A program made the position numbers and the translations under genes. Positions 23-7,789 of a DNA stretch of 10,972 nt are shown piece after piece. A model generated the notes under the pieces. It did not search any database and was not told the origin of the DNA. It saw only the letters and a program-made list of their open reading frames with translations. Position 1 is the stretch's first letter; every line of letters begins with the position of its first letter. Origin of the DNA: a virus; UHGV virus genome UHGV-1700184, one strand, 5' to 3'.

Positions 23-433
23 TTACTCACCTACTTTGATGCGAATGCCTGCGGCGCGGATTGCATCGATGACTTCAGAAACTTTGTATGCCATTACCGT
101 TTGGTAATCCTCGTGAAAATCTGTTCGATGAAGCATGCTGCTACGTTCCGGGAGCAGTATTTCCCGCGCTTCCAGTTCTGCAATGCGCTTTTTTGCTGCT
201 TCCAGTTCATCCAGTAATCCCAGCACGGTATCCGGATTAGCCTTGGCAACAAAATCCCGGACTGGCTTACAATCAATCTCCGCAATGGGTTGATACGATG
301 TGTAGCCATGCTGTCTTGTATAACTACCGTGACGAATAACGAAAAAATCACCATTTATTTTTTTAGCCTGCCACTTATCTTCACCGGCTTTATCTGCCGC
401 TTCACGCAGTGCCTGATAGTTAATTTCGCTCAC
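23..433 (-). CDS. Ead/Ea22-like phage protein (tentative family assignment)
   Basis: Track ORF 23..454 on minus strand. Preferred start is the in-frame GTG at 433..431, preceded by AGGAGG (442-447); the 454 start has no Shine-Dalgarno. Central coiled-coil segment ([17 protein letters not shown]) and position at the far left of the early-left operon resemble lambdoid ead/Ea22 proteins; family call is from memory only. Confidence 0.5.
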
Positions 434-597
434 TGTTTGCCTCCTTTGCGCCACATCGCATTCAGATATTTGTTTTGATTCACTGATGGAAAAGAATTTC
501 TCTTAAGTAATTCCTCTCTCGATGGCATTGGCTTTACGCGTTGGCGAATAATCATTTCTGCCGGAAGAATGCCGGGATTGTATGCAAGTCCTCTCAT
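430..597 (-). CDS. hypothetical small protein, 55 aa
   Basis: Not in the track (under 60 aa). ATG at 597..595 preceded by AAGAGGA; translation [55 protein letters not shown]. Stop TGA overlaps the GTG start of the downstream gene (GTGA), suggesting translational coupling. Confidence 0.45.
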
Positions 598-613
598 GGT
601 AAATTCCTCTTTG

Positions 614-928
614 TTAATTTATTCGTATGCCTGTTCTCTCTTCATCAAGTTTTTTTAGCTTGTATCGCATAGCTCTTACTGAATAAATTGAGCGGCAGGT
701 TGCAATTGCTATTTCTTCTGCGGAGAACTTACCGAAAAGTGATACTTCGGCTCTTGTCCAGCGTCTTCCACGAAGTCGGCTAACAATGTCAGCGCCAATC
801 CTTGTTGCTTTCGCCATTACTGCTTTTTCAGTCCTTTCCAGTTTTTCAGCGATAACTTCAACTGGCATTGTCGCCGCTACTTCGCGCAAGAAATCGACTT
901 CCCATTTCTCCCATGGAGTCTTTTTCAT
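614..928 (-). CDS. hypothetical protein with two tandem HTH-like repeats (putative DNA-binding)
   Basis: Track ORF, 104 aa, ATG at 928. Two internal ~40-aa repeats share a W-x-x-x-E-V and E-I-A pattern ([25 protein letters not shown] / [26 protein letters not shown]) reminiscent of helix-turn-helix units. No clear SD; starts 11 nt after the upstream stop. Confidence 0.6.
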
Positions 929-939
929 AGGCGATACCG

Positions 940-1422
940 TTATTTGATGAGAAGTGAAGGTTTCCCAACTTTGAGTTGAGCACCGGGGATATTTATTCCT
1001 GCTTTTAGTTGGTGTTTGATTGCCAGTTTGTCGGCTTTAATTGTCGTTTCAAACTCAACGTATTCAGGAGGAAGGGCGCTTGAGTCGATGATTTCTACAA
1101 TTTCTGACGGTTTGCGGATTGTTACCTGGTGAATACCTGCTCGAATATTTTTCTTGCCAACCATTTCAAGCGATGACGCTATATATGATTTGATGCTGTC
1201 AATCTTATTTTGAATTACTGCGGCTCGCTCATTTAGTGACTTTGCCTCTTCCTTGAGGCGTTCAGCATAACCAGATTCGTTTTTAATGACGGAAAGAAGT
1301 TGCTCTATTTTATCGGTAAATTCTCCTTCCATGCCTTCTATTGTGTCAGCAATCATCTCTGGCTCTAAATCTGAATCCATCAGCTTTGCGTATTCATTGG
1401 CTATTTCATACAGTTTGCTCAC
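940..1422 (-). CDS. Siphovirus Gp157-family protein
   Basis: Track ORF 940..1428 (TTG start). Preferred start is GTG at 1422..1420, preceded by GGAGG at a 6-nt spacer. Sits immediately downstream of recT and overlaps its 3' end, the usual Gp157 context; family call from memory. Confidence 0.65.
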   Translation of the reverse strand: MSKLYEIANEYAKLMDSDLEPEMIADTIEGMEGEFTDKIEQLLSVIKNESGYAERLKEEAKSLNERAAVIQNKIDSIKSYIASSLEMVGKKNIRAGIHQVTIRKPSEIVEIIDSSALPPEYVEFETTIKADKLAIKHQLKAGINIPGAQLKVGKPSLLIK

Positions 1423-2308
1423 TGGCAACCTCCAGTTTCGCTTTGCATTCTATGTAAATGGCTTGTACGTTCTGCTGCAATTTCATTCCAGATGTCAGGC
1501 GATATGCTTCTGCAAAATATCGCTTCAAATCATCCATGTTTTCTGCCTGAGCCATTTCATCGCAAAGAAGTTGTGCTTTATCCATTATTTCCTGCTGGCG
1601 TTTCCGTTCATCTTCGCGGATATCTTCCTCTGATTTGTGCGGCATAACTGGTTCCTGATGCATACCTTCATCTTCGTTAAGCAGGTGAATGGCATTATCC
1701 AGTCGCTGGGCTTTAGGCCAGTATTTGCTGGCGCGTTTAACTATTGTTTTACGCGCCATCTCTTCCCAGAATGTCTTCCACGGTCCATTCTTTGCCTTGC
1801 TCGTTGCTTCCACAGCTTTAATTTCTGCCAGACTCATTTCTTCAGTGAGGTAGTCACCATCTGCTGTTTTAACCGTACAATAACCACCAACAATAGAGCC
1901 TCGCTCACCAAATGCGTTGTATTTGTGGGTTGGTGCTGAATCAAGGCCGTTTGATTCATAGGTGTCGTTTGAGTACACCAGTTTGCATTGCCCCCACTTA
2001 ATTGATCCTGTCGACTGTGCAAGGTGAAGTAATCCCATATAGCTGATATCAAGGCAAACCATGCCGTCGCGCGGAACTAGATAAGCAAGTTTGCTGGCCG
2101 GGTTTAAGGTGATGCCGATCGCCGCAACATTGATGATGGCGTTCTGTGCGCTGGTTGGATTTGCCAGTGCCGTTTTAGCCAGGTAATCGTTTTTCTGGAA
2201 ATACTGAATTGCAAACTGGCTTTCCTTAGCCCATGTCACCGTCTGTTCAGTCAATGCTCCGCAGAATAACTGCTCCTGCTGTTTAACGAATTCAACGATA
2301 TTGCTCAT
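1406..2308 (-). CDS. recT: RecT-family single-strand annealing recombinase
   Basis: Track ORF, 300 aa, ATG at 2308 preceded by GGAGAA. Length, charged C-terminal tail and overall sequence are typical of phage RecT/Redbeta-superfamily annealing proteins; start overlaps the upstream stop (ATGA). Confidence 0.9.
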   Translation of the reverse strand: MSNIVEFVKQQEQLFCGALTEQTVTWAKESQFAIQYFQKNDYLAKTALANPTSAQNAIINVAAIGITLNPASKLAYLVPRDGMVCLDISYMGLLHLAQSTGSIKWGQCKLVYSNDTYESNGLDSAPTHKYNAFGERGSIVGGYCTVKTADGDYLTEEMSLAEIKAVEATSKAKNGPWKTFWEEMARKTIVKRASKYWPKAQRLDNAIHLLNEDEGMHQEPVMPHKSEEDIREDERKRQQEIMDKAQLLCDEMAQAENMDDLKRYFAEAYRLTSGMKLQQNVQAIYIECKAKLEVASEQTV

Positions 2309-2616
2309 GCTGCTTCTCCAAAAATGTGTCTGCGCTTGAATATTGCGAAGGCATATTCAGCCTTAACTCTTTCGGTTATTGCATCCCAGAACCATTCAGC
2401 GGCTTTTTCCTGATAGTTACAGTCATCATCTTCCAGCCAGTCGATAGCGTCCTTAGTGTGTTCATCTGGTTTATATGAGCGAAGCATTTCGCTTATTGGG
2501 TCGCAACGTTTGCAGAGGCGATCAACTTCACTGTTGATTCGCTCGTAATCTTCATCAGTAAAACTTGCGATTATTTGCGATATTTCACGCTTATCATTCA
2601 GAGTCAGAATCATCAT
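2305..2616 (-). CDS. hypothetical protein, 103 aa (occupies the gam-equivalent position)
   Basis: Track ORF; two adjacent ATGs (2616 and 2613) follow AGGAGA. Stop overlaps recT start. No recognisable family; acidic, Trp-rich C-terminal half. Confidence 0.7.
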   Translation of the reverse strand: MMILTLNDKREISQIIASFTDEDYERINSEVDRLCKRCDPISEMLRSYKPDEHTKDAIDWLEDDDCNYQEKAAEWFWDAITERVKAEYAFAIFKRRHIFGEAA

Positions 2617-2701
2617 CTTTCTCCTGTTCTTTGTGCTGATTGAGCATTTTGTTCATCTGACGAATGAATTCTTCGTCTGACCAGTTATCTGTAAAACTCA
2701 T
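2594..2701 (-). CDS. hypothetical small acidic protein, 35 aa
   Basis: ATG at 2701..2699 overlaps the stop of the upstream Kil-like ORF (ATGA); translation MSFTDNWSDEEFIRQMNKMLNQHKEQEKDDDSDSE; 3' end overlaps the start of the 103-aa gene. Coding status is uncertain. Confidence 0.3.
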   Translation of the reverse strand: MSFTDNWSDEEFIRQMNKMLNQHKEQEKDDDSDSE

Positions 2702-2850
2702 TTCCTGCGATACCACGGAAGGTTGATAGCTGATTTCATCGCTTTATTTGCTTCAAGCCACATTTTTGAATCACCAATAAATCTGGCTATTACTGCTTTG
2801 TTCTGTGCAGCACGAAGCATCTGGTGATTGATGGCTATTTCATTGCGCAT
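2698..2850 (-). CDS. kil: Kil-like small protein (possible host cell-division inhibitor), 50 aa
   Basis: ATG at 2850..2848; translation MRNEIAINHQMLRAAQNKAVIARFIGDSKMWLEANKAMKSAINLPWYRRK. Lies immediately downstream of cIII as in lambda, and the FIGD-x-KM motif resembles lambda Kil as I recall it; unverified. Confidence 0.45.
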   Translation of the reverse strand: MRNEIAINHQMLRAAQNKAVIARFIGDSKMWLEANKAMKSAINLPWYRRK

Positions 2851-2966
2851 AATAAGACCTCAACTCTTTTCCATCCGTCACGTAATTTACGGGTGATTCG
2901 TTCAAGTAAAGATTCATTTAATTGGAAGGCACCCATGCGAGCGCCTCCCGCGATTGCGTAAATCAT
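2835..2966 (-). CDS. cIII: CIII-like regulator (FtsH protease inhibitor that stabilises CII)
   Basis: ATG at 2966..2964 preceded by AAGGAA; translation MIYAIAGGARMGAFQLNESLLERITRKLRDGWKRVEVLLCAMK. The core ESLLERITRKLRDGWKR matches the amphipathic helix of lambda CIII as I recall it. At 43 aa it is shorter than lambda CIII (54 aa). Confidence 0.7.
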   Translation of the reverse strand: MIYAIAGGARMGAFQLNESLLERITRKLRDGWKRVEVLLCAMK

Positions 2967-2990
2967 GGGTGGTTCCTTATGTTGGTTTTA

Positions 2991-3959
2991 TTAGTAGGTT
3001 ATTTTTGTTGCGAATACTTCGCCTTTTACGATGGCTGTTATGATATTTTTAGCAACATCTTCTGATGCGCCAACCTTGATAAGGTCAGCAAGTATTTTGT
3101 TATTTACTTCTTTCCGGTGAGCTTTATCCTTTGCTCTACACTCTTCCTCTTCCTTGATTCTTTTTTCTTCTGCTATTCTGGCTTGCTCTTTTGCTTCAGC
3201 CTCGCGCCGGATTCGTTCAGCCTCCTCCTGTGCTTTTCGGCGTTCTGCTTCAATTGCCGCCTGCTTTTCTCTTTCAGCTCGTTCTGCTGCCTCTTTTGCT
3301 TCGCGCTGTGCTCGTTGCTCAGCTTCAATGCGTTCACGCTCTGCACGTTCCGCTGCGGCCTTAGCTTCTGCTTCTCGCCTTGCTGCTGCTTCAATTTCGG
3401 CTTTTGCCTTTGCTTCGGCTTCTGCTCTGGCTTTCTCTTCAGCTTCTCTTTTTAAGCGTTCTTCATGCTCTCGCTTTTCCTGCTCCGCTTTGAGTCTTGC
3501 CTCTTCTCTTTGGCGGTCAAATTCGCGATCCATCAAAATCGCTATTTCATGGTCAGACTCAATTTGCTTTGCGAGAGCTTCAGCTGCTGCCTTAGCTTCT
3601 TCTTCGGCTTTAATCCGCGCCTGTTCCTCTTCATAATCAGTAAGAGGCTGGCGTGCCTTGGCTTTCAGCTCATCAAGGCGATCACGCACTGTCTTGCGGT
3701 TAGCATCAATTAGCTTTGGAATTTCCTTCAGTTCAGCAACAAGGTCTTTGCCAAGACCATCGAGATATGTTTTCGTCTGCGCAACTTTATACGCCAGAGA
3801 AGCGATCTCCTTTCTGCCCTTTGCCGTTGTGATATCAGGCACAAAGGACATAACTTCACGTTCAACCTTTTGAAGGATTTCTTCAATCTGGTCGGCAGAC
3901 TGAAATACAGTCATTGCATTTGCTTTTTCAATAACAACTAAATCTGTTACTTCACTCAT
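2991..3959 (-). CDS. phage coiled-coil protein with a long E/R/K/A-rich single-helix segment
   Basis: Track ORF, 322 aa, ATG at 3959 preceded by GGAGG. A globular N-terminal ~110 aa is followed by ~170 aa of near-pure E/A/K/R repeats (AEAEAKAKAEIEAAARREAEAKAAAERAERERIEAEQRAQREAKE) and a short C-terminal domain. The DNA is strongly strand-asymmetric low complexity, which creates spurious ORFs in other frames. Confidence 0.8.
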   Translation of the reverse strand: MSEVTDLVVIEKANAMTVFQSADQIEEILQKVEREVMSFVPDITTAKGRKEIASLAYKVAQTKTYLDGLGKDLVAELKEIPKLIDANRKTVRDRLDELKAKARQPLTDYEEEQARIKAEEEAKAAAEALAKQIESDHEIAILMDREFDRQREEARLKAEQEKREHEERLKREAEEKARAEAEAKAKAEIEAAARREAEAKAAAERAERERIEAEQRAQREAKEAAERAEREKQAAIEAERRKAQEEAERIRREAEAKEQARIAEEKRIKEEEECRAKDKAHRKEVNNKILADLIKVGASEDVAKNIITAIVKGEVFATKITY

Positions 3960-3994
3960 ATATCCTCCTTAATTTGTATGCGTCAAATCCGCGC

Positions 3995-4306
3995 TCAGGC
4001 TGCTGAGGTTTCTTCTTTCAGGCTTTCGATATATTTACGTGGGTCGTCGTAACATTGGCATTCGCTGTACCAATCTACCCAGCGATCCGTAAGCTCCATC
4101 TCTGATAAATCTTCATCAGTAAGGCTCTCATCCCACATCTCAAGGCCGTTAGCATTGCAGTAGTCAGGCTTGATGTTGTTGTCATACTGAAAGGCATCAT
4201 AATCAGCCAGTGCATCCATCAGGCGAACACCCTCTTCAACACTTGCCACTTCTACAATGAACGGCTTCATAGGTACTTGCGGGATATGCCAGACACGTAA
4301 TTTCAT
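3995..4306 (-). CDS. hypothetical acidic protein, 103 aa
   Basis: Track ORF 3995..4402, but the supported start is ATG at 4306..4304 (MKLRVWHIPQ...) with GGAGG 4 nt upstream; the ATG at 4402 has SD spacing of only 2 nt and would read through a terminator hairpin. C-terminal half is rich in D/E/W/Y. Confidence 0.7.
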   Translation of the reverse strand: MKLRVWHIPQVPMKPFIVEVASVEEGVRLMDALADYDAFQYDNNIKPDYCNANGLEMWDESLTDEDLSEMELTDRWVDWYSECQCYDDPRKYIESLKEETSAA

Positions 4307-4318
4307 ATTTCCTCCGTC

Positions 4319-4346
4319 AAAAAAAATCGCCCTCACACTGGAGGGC
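4319..4346 (-). terminator. intrinsic terminator candidate (minus-strand sense)
   Basis: Stem GCCCTC (4329-4334) / GAGGGC (4341-4346) with a 6-nt loop, followed on the minus strand by eight T (complement of A 4319-4326). Lies directly upstream of the RBS of the 103-aa gene. Confidence 0.6.
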
Positions 4347-4408
4347 AAAGAAGATTTCCAACAATCAGAACAAGTCGGCTCCTGTTTAGTTACGAGCGAC
4401 ATTGCTCC

Positions 4409-4436
4409 GTGTATTCACTCGTTGGAATGAATACAC
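4409..4436. repeat. perfect 9-bp inverted repeat with 10-nt spacer
   Basis: GTGTATTCA (4409-4417) ... TGAATACAC (4428-4436), in the ~115-bp segment between two minus-strand terminators. Confidence 0.7.
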
Positions 4437-4463
4437 AGTGCAGTGTTTATTCTGTTGTTTATG

Positions 4464-4491
4464 CCAAAAATAAAGGCCGACTATGCGGCCT
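4464..4491 (-). terminator. intrinsic terminator downstream of the membrane-protein gene
   Basis: Stem AGGCCG (4474-4479) / CGGCCT (4486-4491) followed on the minus strand by TTTATTTTTGG (complement of 4464-4473); 5 nt after the stop at 4496-4498. Confidence 0.65.
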
Positions 4492-4495
4492 GAAA

Positions 4496-4945
4496 TTACT
4501 TAACCAATGATGCTGCATATTCGATAAGGTAAAGCTTTGGGGCCAGCCAAATTTTTAACCAAGTCATATTGGTTACTACACCAATAATAAAAATCCCCCA
4601 CAGAGTCAAAACTCCAACCAATGGCATGATAAGAAGATTAATATCACCTTTGCTATCCCAAACCATTGTCGGCCTGTATTTGGGATTTCCTTTCTCCCAT
4701 GAATATCCTTCATCACCGATTTTACCTGTCTCAACTCTTTGGCACTGCTTCTTCATAAACCAGAAAACCAGTGGGATTGTTAGAATGGCCATTAATGTTT
4801 TAATCAGACTGTCAACCATATTCCATAGCAGCAACTGATGAACAACATCAGGAATCTGTGCCTGGCTAAATGAAACAGCCGCGTCTATTCCATTACTGGC
4901 TTTTTGCAGTAGTTCTACGAGAATCTTGTTTGCTTGTTCTTCCAT
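4496..4945 (-). CDS. small integral membrane protein, 149 aa, two predicted TM helices (candidate superinfection-exclusion or abortive-infection cargo)
   Basis: Track ORF; ATG at 4945 preceded by AGGTGA. Hydrophobic stretches LIKTLMAILTIPLVFWFM and INLLIMPLVGVLTLWGIFIIGVV. By eye the DNA is markedly AT-richer than its neighbours. Has its own terminator, and lies in the N-to-cIII interval where lambdoid phages carry accessory genes such as sieB. Confidence 0.8.
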   Translation of the reverse strand: MEEQANKILVELLQKASNGIDAAVSFSQAQIPDVVHQLLLWNMVDSLIKTLMAILTIPLVFWFMKKQCQRVETGKIGDEGYSWEKGNPKYRPTMVWDSKGDINLLIMPLVGVLTLWGIFIIGVVTNMTWLKIWLAPKLYLIEYAASLVK

Positions 4946-5304: not shown

Positions 5305-5643
5305 CTATGACCATTTTTTATTTGGATTTCGTTGGTGAGCGTGATTAACAACTCTGTGCATTACATCCTCATATTTTTCATCTTCAATTTTTTCGACATC
5401 GCGAGGAAATGGTGTTGCTAATGCTTTGTCAACTTTGTCCATTGGTTCTTCATTAATCTTATATTCAGGACCGTCATCTATAGCATTAAATCCAGGTGTT
5501 ACACCGTTTTTTAATGCATATGCTATCCTTTTTTCCCATCTCGCTATTCTCCTCCTGTCTCGAGATGTAAGACCTCTATCAGATACTTTTCTGTTTTGTC
5601 CGCGGTCAGGATTAACATAAATAGTCTTTTTCACCATAAGCAT
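5305..5643 (-). CDS. hypothetical basic/acidic protein translationally coupled to N, about 112 aa
   Basis: Track ORF 5305..5649 uses a TTG; the first ATG is 5643..5641, 2 nt after the N stop. Arginine-rich segment SRDRRRIARWEKRIA followed by an acidic C-terminal half. No family recognised. Confidence 0.6.
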   Translation of the reverse strand: MLMVKKTIYVNPDRGQNRKVSDRGLTSRDRRRIARWEKRIAYALKNGVTPGFNAIDDGPEYKINEEPMDKVDKALATPFPRDVEKIEDEKYEDVMHRVVNHAHQRNPNKKWS

Positions 5644-5645
5644 AC

Positions 5646-5951
5646 TCAATAAGCACCGTACGGTAGTTTACTGTACAATTTTATTTTTTGGACTGCATGT
5701 ATTTTGTTTCCTAATGGGTTTGAATCTTTGTAATAAATACTTCTATTTTTTCGAACGACTTCTTCTTTCTTCTTGCAGCAAAGGCTTCCTAGTGATGCTG
5801 CTTTGTCTGCTCTGACGCAACCAGAGAGCTTTAGCGCAATTTTTCGCGCCAGTGCTTCATTACTGCGTCGCTCGGCAATAAGTTCTGCTCTGCGAGCTTT
5901 GTAGCGGCTTTTTGCCGTACCTTTGGATTCTTTCCAGACAATGGTTACCAT
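5646..5951 (-). CDS. N: N-family transcription antitermination protein (phage-21 type)
   Basis: Track ORF 5646..5981; preferred start is ATG at 5951..5949 (MVTIVWKESKGTAKSRYKARRAELIAERR) with AAGGAG 6 nt upstream. GTAKSRYKARRAELIAERR matches the arginine-rich boxB-binding peptide of phage 21 N as I recall it. Cognate boxA/boxB lie upstream. Confidence 0.85.
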   Translation of the reverse strand: MVTIVWKESKGTAKSRYKARRAELIAERRSNEALARKIALKLSGCVRADKAASLGSLCCKKKEEVVRKNRSIYYKDSNPLGNKIHAVQKIKLYSKLPYGAY

Positions 5952-6058
5952 GATGGTCTCCTTTAAGTGGCTTTGGCGCATGACGCGTCGAGGTGCTTAT
6001 CTTCTCGATCGCTGTCTTGCAGCTGCAATTCGCGCCATCCCCAAAACCACTCAAGTTC

Positions 6059-6266: not shown

Positions 6267-6917
6267 TTAAGGAAGGTTTGCTAGCTTGGCATCAACGACA
6301 ACGCCAATGATTTTACAGTTCCCATTGATTTCAATCATTGGGTATTGTGGATTGAGTGGTTTCAGGAATTTTCTACCGGCATCAATAACTAACTTTTTGA
6401 ATGTCGCCTCGTTTTCTCCTTCAAGTTTGGCGACTACCAGCTTTCCATTACGTGGTTCGACTTCTGGGTCGACGAGAATAATCATCCCCTCAGGAATACT
6501 CAGTCCTGCCGGGGCAGTCATTGAATCGCCTTTAACGTCGAGCCAAAAAGAGTCTTCAGAACAATCTACCGTTGTGTCGTACCAGTTATCTATTGCACGC
6601 CTATGATATGGCTCTACAGCTTCCATCCAACATCCTGCGCTTACCCAACTAATTAGAGGATACGAACCTCTTGGATCATGCCTGCTGTGATAGGCAATGT
6701 TTGAAAGACTATCCTCTCCTTTCAACAGGTAATCAGGGGAGCACTGCAAAGCCTTGGCTAAGGCCAATAGGTTTTCGCCATTGGGCTCAGTTTCAGATCG
6801 CTCCCATTGGGAAATAGCAACATTAGACACGCCAACCATCTTGCCAAGGGCAGCCTGCCTAATCTTGAGTTCTTTTCTGCGAGCGCGAATACGCTCACCC
6901 ATCAGTTGTGTATTCAT
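6267..6917 (-). CDS. cI: CI/C2-type prophage repressor (N-terminal HTH, C-terminal S24 LexA-like autopeptidase domain)
   Basis: Track ORF, 216 aa, ATG at 6917. HTH segment QAALGKMVGVSNVAISQWERSE; C-terminal domain carries the catalytic-type GDSM serine motif and a downstream lysine (VVAKLEGE). The N-terminal domain closely resembles P22 C2 repressor as I recall it. Confidence 0.9.
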   Translation of the reverse strand: MNTQLMGERIRARRKELKIRQAALGKMVGVSNVAISQWERSETEPNGENLLALAKALQCSPDYLLKGEDSLSNIAYHSRHDPRGSYPLISWVSAGCWMEAVEPYHRRAIDNWYDTTVDCSEDSFWLDVKGDSMTAPAGLSIPEGMIILVDPEVEPRNGKLVVAKLEGENEATFKKLVIDAGRKFLKPLNPQYPMIEINGNCKIIGVVVDAKLANLP

Positions 6918-7231: not shown

Positions 7232-7298
7232 CAAACATCAGCGGCAAATCCATTGGGTGTGCCGCTATAACTCAATATCAATATAGGAAAATTAACAA

Positions 7299-7595
7299 AT
7301 GGCACAAGCAAGCTACAGCAAGCCAACACAGCGAGAAATTGATCGCGCTGAAACTGATTTACTCATCAACCTGTCAACGCTTACCCAGCGCGGTCTGGCA
7401 AAGATGATTGGCTGTCATGAATCGAAGATAAGCAGAACGGACTGGAGATTTATTGCTTCGGTCTTGTGTGCTTTCGGAATGGCATCAGACATCAGTCCGA
7501 TTAGCAGGGCTTTTAAGTATGCGCTTGATGAAATCACAAAGAAAAAATCCCCGGCCGCCACCGAGGATTTTAAGCAAATTGATATGCAATTCTGA
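7299..7595 (+). CDS. cII: CII-like transcriptional activator
   Basis: Track ORF, 98 aa, preceded by AGGAAA. HTH region and C-terminal KKKSPAATEDFKQIDMQF parallel lambda CII (KKRPAATERSEQIQMEF as I recall it). Confidence 0.85.
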   Translation: MAQASYSKPTQREIDRAETDLLINLSTLTQRGLAKMIGCHESKISRTDWRFIASVLCAFGMASDISPISRAFKYALDEITKKKSPAATEDFKQIDMQF

Positions 7596-7617
7596 GGGAA
7601 TTACTGGATCAATCCAC
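7538..7617 (-). ncRNA. oop: OOP-like antisense RNA candidate overlapping the 3' end of cII
   Basis: Minus-strand hairpin across 7548-7567 (GC-rich stem with one G-U wobble that is a C-A mismatch on the plus strand), followed by a U-tract (complement of A-run 7541-7547). A -10-like CATAAT lies on the minus strand at 7625-7630, predicting a ~77-nt RNA, the same size and place as lambda OOP. Confidence 0.35.
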
Positions 7618-7627
7618 AGGAGTAATT

Positions 7628-7789
7628 ATGACAAAACGTCGTAAGAAATACCAGGAAAAAGAAGAGATTCGACACCCTGATTCACCTGAGGGATTAGTGG
7701 TAGCCGCAGCAAATAACAGGGCGTTCGCAGAGCGCCTTGTTGGTGTTTACAGACTAGCCAAAGCAGGAGTGAAACATGGGCGTCGTTAA
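7628..7789 (+). CDS. hypothetical small basic protein, 53 aa, between cII and O
   Basis: ATG at 7628 preceded by AGGAG at a 5-nt spacer; translation [53 protein letters not shown]; overlaps the O start by 14 nt. Not in the track (under 60 aa). Confidence 0.4.
   Translation: MTKRRKKYQEKEEIRHPDSPEGLVVAAANNRAFAERLVGVYRLAKAGVKHGRR

Follow-up and report, generated by a model that had tools for sequence, protein, structure and literature searches.

Lambda Gam is a dimeric DNA mimic with an acidic surface, in which a long N-terminal helix plugs the channel of RecB for single-stranded DNA, and an interaction of Gam with SbcCD has also been reported (PMC5218532). Here, we analyze a stretch of 10,972 bases from the UHGV virus genome UHGV-1700184 (the window, by which we always mean the whole stretch), which covers the immunity and early genes of a temperate phage or prophage of Enterobacterales, lambdoid and similar to P22. 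In the position of gam, the window carries a gene for a 103-residue protein, here called X, that leads a recombination cassette with recT and gp157 and without an exonuclease gene. Combining genomic context, sequence and predicted structure, we suggest that X is very probably a homolog of lambda Gam that has diverged strongly and, with a probability of about 0.65, that it has a Gam-like function, i.e. that it inhibits RecBCD or a similar end nuclease.

X as a candidate counterpart of lambda Gam

An exhaustive search of 1.84 billion representative sequences with a hidden Markov model (HMM) recovered 53 X-family proteins with identities down to 24%, about 35 of them full-length at ~100 residues; a word-indexed search with X returned only close copies from E. 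coli, all named 'hypothetical protein'. The family corresponds to phrog_3486, with more than 1,000 sequences from E. coli and Salmonella, and includes proteins of the studied phages mEpX1, HK140, Kapi1 and Gally. X is without a name in all GenBank records examined and in PHROGs, Pfam and NCBIfam: scans of Pfam and NCBIfam gave no match, no named PHROG family was matched, and phrog_3486 itself is unnamed. Literature searches found no published description of the X family or of the RecT-Gp157 cassette. Because an open reading frame (ORF) of ~100 residues is conserved down to 24% identity among the 37 homologs in our family alignment and is predicted to adopt a confident fold, the 103-residue ORF is, judged by conservation and modelling, a real gene.

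In every context examined X leads its operon, and its stop codon overlaps the start codon of the next gene by 1 or 4 nucleotides. The genes that follow are (i) recT and gp157 in the window, in 80 IMG/VR loci and in locus L086, where X has 41% identity; (ii) recT and a YqaJ gene in Cronobacter phage ENT47670 and in L089 and L090; (iii) a DUF3799 exonuclease gene and recT in L091 and in Erwinia phage phiEt88 (L096); (iv) recT in L093; (v) a DUF3799 gene in L094; and (vi) in Salmonella phage SEN22, where X is 95% identical, a DUF3799 exonuclease gene and a gene for a 189-residue protein, without recT. The 80 IMG/VR loci, which all encode a RecT with at least 93% identity and extend up to 8 kilobases on each side of recT, share an invariant X(103 residues)-RecT-Gp157 block. 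Phage Dewey carries a true lambda Gam (PF06064, E=1.5e-50) exactly where X would lie, in front of the same RecT-Gp157-Abc1-like block. In total, X operons follow the gam-bet-exo order of lambda, and in Enterobacterales phages RecT operons as a rule begin with a member of the X family, whatever comes after RecT. An earlier note on this DNA had assigned the 103-residue protein to the gam position by positional analogy, and this idea is now backed by synteny, by the replacement in Dewey, by the predicted fold and by a conserved motif that X and Gam appear to share in profile comparisons.

The near-universal adjacency and translational coupling of X to the RecT operon would also be expected if X were a recombinase cofactor with RecT or the annealing step as its target, analogous to Arf for P22 Erf, and not a nuclease inhibitor. 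The earlier note had named an annealing cofactor as an alternative, and this now appears unlikely: the 95%-identical copy in SEN22 precedes an exonuclease and a 189-residue protein in an operon without RecT, where a DUF3799 gene comes next the coupling of X is to the exonuclease and not to RecT, the same RecT in Dewey works with Gam in the place of X, and the fold and motif of X point to Gam.

Two further observations concern the contexts and variants of X. The SEN22 operon (L087, NC_028696; 5001-7013) encodes X, a DUF3799/RecE-like exonuclease (273 residues), the 189-residue protein and an Abc1-like protein, and has no recognisable annealing protein. The 189-residue protein (phrog_11517) has no match in Pfam or NCBIfam; lying in the slot of the annealing protein, it may be a candidate for an undescribed single-strand annealing protein. 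Separately, in P0022 the first 48 residues are identical to those of X in the window and the C-terminal half is different, and in P0025 the N-terminus of the 35-residue ORF upstream of X is fused to the C-terminal 42 residues of X (an in-frame deletion variant); there is therefore a mosaic joint inside the X gene.

The AlphaFold model of X reached a predicted local distance difference test (pLDDT) score of 73.6 with six close sequences, and a pLDDT of 91.5 with a predicted template modelling score (pTM) of 0.78 with the 37-sequence alignment. The model consists of five helices (6-17, 21-35, 40-47, 54-64 and 66-102), and the predicted fold is thus helical like that of GamS. When the PDB was searched with the model using Foldseek, six GamS chains were among the top 25 of 350,542, with non-significant scores, and 2uuz_B had the highest probability in the list of matches (0.54; template modelling (TM) scores 0.46/0.54). 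X also resembles Gam in physical chemistry: the medians are 102 residues, an isoelectric point (pI) of 4.65 and a net charge of -9 for X, and 98 residues, 4.70 and -9 for Gam, a small acidic composition like that of a DNA mimic.

At the sequence level, single hhalign comparisons of the X alignment gave E=1.2e-3 with one Gam and E=1.1e-3, with a probability of 20%, with an alignment of 18 Gam sequences. The aligned segment pairs residues 53-78 of X with residues 57-82 of GamS over 26 columns with 42% identity (TKDAIDWLEDDDCNYQEKAAEWFWD and SKNAISKAFDDDVEFQERAAEFIRY, respectively) and spans the invariant Gam motif DDDVEFQER.AE and DDDCNYQEKAAE of X, which suggests a common collinear motif DDDxx[F/Y]QE[R/K]xAE. 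Gam shows no variation here (D67, D68, D69, V70, F72, Q73 and E74), and within the X family no other segment is conserved better. In a database of ~12,200 ORFs and proteins, the first genuine matches of the X HMM outside its own family are Gam proteins, with the repeat proteins P0055 and P0064 scoring higher; similarly, the first matches of the Gam HMM outside its family are X proteins, with nothing between. These reciprocal matches have E values of 3e-3 to 7e-2, and when the X and Gam alignments were merged with MAFFT they were collinear end to end. Two other candidate relatives of X were rejected, i.e. RacC, which is encoded upstream of recE in Rac (hhalign E=0.66), and P22 Abc2 (PF11043; BLASTP E=3.1 and hhalign E=0.1 over 11 columns). 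As a further control, a sequence search of the PDB with the X-family profile yielded nothing significant.

Several results weigh against a relationship of X to Gam. Foldseek searches of the PDB and of viral models (BFVD) gave no significant match, and the global TM score of X with GamS is just 0.46-0.54. The Pfam Gam model (PF06064) matched none of the 37 X members at E<=10. All statistics for sequence similarity between X and Gam are marginal (P ~1e-3), and the aligned motif covers only about one quarter of the protein. The main reservation concerns the N-terminal third of X, which is predicted to consist of two short helices (6-17 and 21-35) with a break between them as opposed to the single long helix of Gam, and for this reason the part of Gam that blocks the RecB channel is not clearly conserved in X. 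A chance resemblance, in which X would be an unrelated small acidic helical protein such as a regulator or a host-takeover factor that has in common with Gam only the slot and a generic helical shape, seems unlikely. The evidence from position, from substitution by Gam, from fold, from motif and from physical chemistry comes along separate lines and, even if no single statistic is strong, all of them point to Gam.

An operon layout without an exonuclease

On the plus strand, the window encodes Cro, CII, an O-like initiator, a DnaB-type helicase and NinB, and the repressor gene (6267..6917, minus strand) faces them. The leftward operon on the minus strand is one tightly overlapped unit of cIII, kil, a 35-residue ORF, the 103-residue ORF (X), recT, gp157 and a 104-residue ORF. 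All ORFs listed in the earlier note exist on the minus strand at the coordinates below, and Pfam confirms RecT, Gp157 and Kil.

2835..2966, minus strand: cIII (PF02061, E=4e-15)
2698..2850, minus strand: Kil, FtsZ/septation inhibitor family (PF06301, E=1.7e-20; phrog_2055, E=1.2e-35)
2594..2701, minus strand: 35-residue ORF between kil and X (phrog_17766, E=5e-16; phrog_2123, N-terminal 20 residues)
2305..2616, minus strand: X, 103 residues (probably 102 from the ATG at 2613), putative diverged lambda-Gam-like protein, first gene of the recombination cassette
1406..2308, minus strand: RecT-family single-strand annealing protein, 300 residues (PF03837, E=2.5e-33; phrog_148, E=1.8e-91; TIGR00616, 76.8 bits)
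940..1428, minus strand: Siphovirus Gp157-family protein (PF05565, E=2.4e-37; phrog_253, E=5e-54)
614..928, minus strand: 104-residue protein with two helix-turn-helix (HTH)/Myb-like repeats (phrog_323, E=5.4e-20; PHROG family of P22 Abc1 and Mu gp9)
23..454, minus strand: Ead/Ea22-like protein (PF13935, E=2.1e-16), at the head of the variable 'ea' region that follows the cassette

The Ead/Ea22-like gene is context and lies outside the recombination module. In Megablast searches, the left 4.5 kilobases are ~93-97% identical in numerous E. coli prophages as well as in the sequenced phages vB_EcoP-683R2, Louie, Kapi1, mEpX1, HK140, Gally, E212 and PDP110P1.

X probably starts at the second ATG (2613), 7 nucleotides past a GGAG, to give 102 residues as in its homologs. 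Upstream, the kil stop overlaps the start of the 35-residue ORF as ATGA, and the 35-residue ORF in turn overlaps the start of X; downstream, the stop of X and the start of recT overlap in GCAGC-ATGA-GC, and the earlier note had likewise read an ATGA overlap here. That recT is flanked by gp157 downstream and by overlapping small genes upstream also agrees with the sequence. A GGAG lies 7 nucleotides upstream of the recT ATG, within the 3' end of X. Across the family, X ends in E-[A/V]-A, encoded by GAG GTG GCN or GGA GAA GCA GCA and followed by TGATG, TAATG or ATGA, and these junction codons supply GGAG/GAGG 4-8 nucleotides before the ATG of the next gene. Thus, translation of the leader X is coupled to that of the next gene, the last codons of X (G-E-A-A or E-V-A) being the Shine-Dalgarno sequence of that gene and stop and start overlapping. 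We rejected the E-[A/V]-A tail as a protein degron or peptide motif, since it is mostly explained at the RNA level by the Shine-Dalgarno sequence and the overlapped start; synonymous variation in the last alanine codon may leave room for a role of the tail at the protein level.

RecT scores well above the curated cutoffs for PF03837 (115.7 bits; cutoff 24) and TIGR00616 (cutoff 52.65), and Gp157 matches PF05565 over its full length (128.9 bits; cutoff 28.6). Gp157 probably starts at the GTG at 1422, 6 nucleotides past a GGAGG, which gives 160 residues like its homologs. It occupies the slot that is held by the YqaJ exonuclease in sister cassettes. PHROGs gives phrog_253 the label 'Mu Gam-like end protection', and we treat this relationship as tentative: Mu Gam belongs to a separate family with the same label (phrog_491), and hhalign aligned Gp157 and Mu Gam weakly (E=0.049) over 60 collinear columns in the C-terminal domain with an R.PS.S[VI] motif, while Gp157 had no match to Pfam Mu_Gam at E<=10 and none to Mu Gam in BLASTP. 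In phage Louie (L001), a gene for an HNH endonuclease, which is probably a homing endonuclease, lies between recT and gp157 (7249-7716) in an otherwise identical cassette.

Of the 73 loci with close copies of X, 71 have the 104-residue gene after gp157. In L079-L085, the seven loci that diverge most, X has 54-56% and Gp157 ~75% identity to the window, and the 104-residue gene is replaced by a P22 Abc1 homolog (47-51% identity). The 104-residue ORF shares phrog_323 with P22 Abc1 (1.3e-23) and Mu gp9 (5.2e-29); a pairwise BLASTP comparison with P22 Abc1 found nothing, and the link is seen at the level of the PHROG profile only. Judged by this profile, the 104-residue gene encodes an Abc1-family protein, as the annotators of Gally guessed. 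This assignment and the PHROGs label of Gp157 go beyond the earlier note. Genes for small HTH/Myb-like proteins of phrog_323 are recurrently linked to genes for end protection or anti-RecBCD functions, i.e. Mu gp9 to Mu Gam (L097, 5482-6325), the 104-residue ORF to Gp157 (window, 614-1428) and Abc1 to Erf/Abc2 (P22, L005, 1971-2255). The 35-residue ORF has the position of arf in P22 and is conserved in more than 70 loci. Its identification as P22 Arf (PF17585/phrog_2445) was rejected: it has no Pfam match, it falls into phrog_17766 and phrog_2123 and not phrog_2445, and its similarity to P22 Arf comprises just an SDEEFI motif over 12 residues (E=0.007).

The statement in the earlier note that the window has no RecE- or YqaJ-type exonuclease is borne out by Pfam, PHROG and tblastn searches alike. 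The ten ORFs of the left operon (23..4945) contain no nuclease in Pfam and PHROG scans, and the two ORFs on the N side (5305..5981) have no nuclease match in Pfam. Queries with three YqaJ proteins, two DUF3799 proteins (RecE-like PD-(D/E)XK) and Rac RecE found nothing by tblastn in the window, in six complete carrier genomes (mEpX1, HK140, Gally, Kapi1, E212 and PDP110P1) and three partial ones, or in the 80 IMG/VR loci. In the whole genomes of mEpX1, HK140, Gally, Kapi1 and E212, no exonuclease is annotated in the stretch between cassette and integrase or elsewhere (PDP110P1 carries no annotation), and the partial regions of Louie and 683R2 have none from the cassette to the integration end. 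The earlier note had also considered an exonuclease gene just past the window edge; such a gene is absent in every complete relative, the sequence to the left of position 1, which cannot be read in the window itself, being judged from these close relatives. In this lineage, the annealing protein is not accompanied by a cognate 5'-3' exonuclease as in the two-component RecET and YqaJ-RecT systems. Because the carriers are viable, plaque-forming phages, the layout without an exonuclease is a real and stable design and not a truncation.

Outside the cassette, the window encodes on the minus strand a 322-residue protein (2991-3959; phrog_1376, function unknown) with a long coiled-coil-like middle part rich in E, A, K and R, which is called 'TolA' in relatives and the region of which has an AT skew of -0.6, extreme in the composition profile. 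It is accompanied by a P22 gp17-like superinfection-exclusion ORF (3995-4402, minus strand) that is listed with 135 residues; the Pfam domain spans residues 33-130, and the true start is probably internal. The G+C content increases from ~0.42-0.47 to ~0.53 from ~8250 onward, across the genes for the O-like protein and the DnaB-type helicase, an indication of a mosaic boundary within the replication module.

Chi sites and a proposed mechanism

RecBCD inhibition can be probed indirectly through Chi sites: Chi is reported to be avoided by lambdoid phages that have Gam or Abc2, with observed/expected (O/E) ratios of ~0-0.3, and over-represented (O/E ~2.5) in phages with a recombinase and without an inhibitor (PMC3784561). 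Because that study (PMC3784561) looked for inhibitors with Pfam Gam and Abc2 only, carriers of X would have been scored as inhibitor-negative. No Chi sites occur in Gally, Kapi1, E212 and PDP110P1, with 1.9-3.0 expected in each. The window has none either (0.46 expected), and the early regions of the 80 loci, which are highly redundant, have 4 with 43 expected. Against inhibition by X, mEpX1 has 6 and HK140 has 4 Chi sites (O/E ~2 and ~1.5, respectively), like the inhibitor-less phages of that study (PMC3784561). These sites (mEpX1, 2050-16824 and 40060; HK140, 2143-16201) share a single strand in each genome, and with one exception they fall in head and tail genes of the HK97/HK022 type; the early regions of both phages have none. 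In total, the Chi pattern is mixed and leans to the inhibitor class without being decisive.

The retention of Chi sites in some carriers would also be compatible with a Gam fold that serves another activity. X could target another host or defence nuclease, e.g. SbcCD, for which an interaction with Gam is mentioned in PMC5218532, or, in the manner of P22 Abc2, it could remodel RecBCD, which would then provide the resection that the cassette lacks. The N-terminal region of X that is unlike the channel-plugging helix of Gam, the lack of an exonuclease in the cassette and the P22-like context, in which Erf relies on Abc2-modified RecBCD and an Abc1-family gene adjoins, would all be accommodated in this way. 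However, X has no similarity to Abc2 by BLASTP or hhalign, hijacking of RecBCD is unnecessary where X heads cassettes with their own YqaJ or DUF3799 exonuclease, and true Gam substitutes for X in Dewey. We therefore consider another activity unlikely and favor Gam-like inhibition by X.

We suggest that X, a small acidic helical product of the early left operon, would bind and block a host nuclease acting on double-strand ends, most probably RecBCD. With RecBCD neutralised, phage DNA ends and rolling-circle tails would survive, and the surviving ends would be handed to RecT, which would anneal single-stranded DNA. Since the cassette has no 5'-3' exonuclease, the single strands would have to come from resection by host nucleases or be exposed already at replication forks; P22 Erf, which is likewise without an exonuclease of its own, offers an analogy for annealing of this kind. 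The analysis shows the gene structure, the synteny, the lack of an exonuclease and the resemblance of X to Gam in fold and motif; dimerisation of X, its binding and inhibition of RecBCD and this source of single-stranded DNA are what we infer.

Extending this model, X, RecT, Gp157 and the Abc1-like protein might form a self-contained exonuclease-free system that combines a lambda-Gam-like blocker with a Mu-Gam/Ku-like end binder. X would engage RecBCD or another end-processing enzyme by means of a different N-terminal element, and Gp157 would replace the exonuclease by holding the ends for host resection or for loading of RecT. This extended scheme is speculative and we regard it as doubtful.

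Significance and comparison with described systems

We suggest that X is a putative new and strongly diverged variant of the lambda Gam-type inhibitors within a variant recombination cassette, a finding that extends and does not overturn existing knowledge. It provides a testable function for a protein family that is annotated everywhere as hypothetical. RecT-based recombineering currently borrows lambda Gam, and X, if our interpretation is correct, would be a natural RecT-matched anti-RecBCD partner for this purpose. Were X to inhibit RecBCD, it would also be worth testing, as a further trigger or evader, with defence systems by which RecBCD is monitored, and RecT lambdoid phages that have been counted as inhibitor-less would be reclassified (e.g. 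PMC3784561). The RecT-Gp157 layout without an exonuclease is carried by viable phages, which leads to the question of where RecT obtains its single-stranded substrate.

Lambda Gam (GamS; PF06064; PDB 2uuz, 2uv1 and 5mbv) is, like X, encoded first in a recombination operon ahead of the annealing protein, and both proteins are ~100 residues long, acidic (pI ~4.7, net charge -9) and all-helical, in the case of X by prediction. They differ in that overall identity is ~15%, in that X has no match to Pfam Gam and in their partners, which are Red-beta and Exo for Gam, whereas X is found with RecT plus Gp157, YqaJ or DUF3799. With the RecET system of Rac and with YqaJ/RecT, the window has the RecT-family annealing protein in common but, unlike these systems, its lineage lacks the exonuclease; sister cassettes with a leader of the X family carry a YqaJ or a RecE-like DUF3799 nuclease, and racC, the upstream gene in Rac, is unrelated to X (hhalign E=0.66).

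P22 (arf-erf-abc1-abc2) and the window have in common the early-left order of cIII, kil, a small ORF and recombination genes, the absence of a phage exonuclease and a gene of the Abc1 family (phrog_323) that follows the one for the annealing protein, and in both an anti-RecBCD function, putative in the case of X, is coupled to the recombinase. The annealing protein is Erf in P22 as opposed to RecT with Gp157 in the window, and whereas P22 has Abc2, none was found in the window, where the putative anti-RecBCD gene is Gam-like and lies upstream. In Mu, gp9 lies beside the gam gene for the Ku-like end-binding protein, as the 104-residue phrog_323 gene lies beside gp157 in the window.

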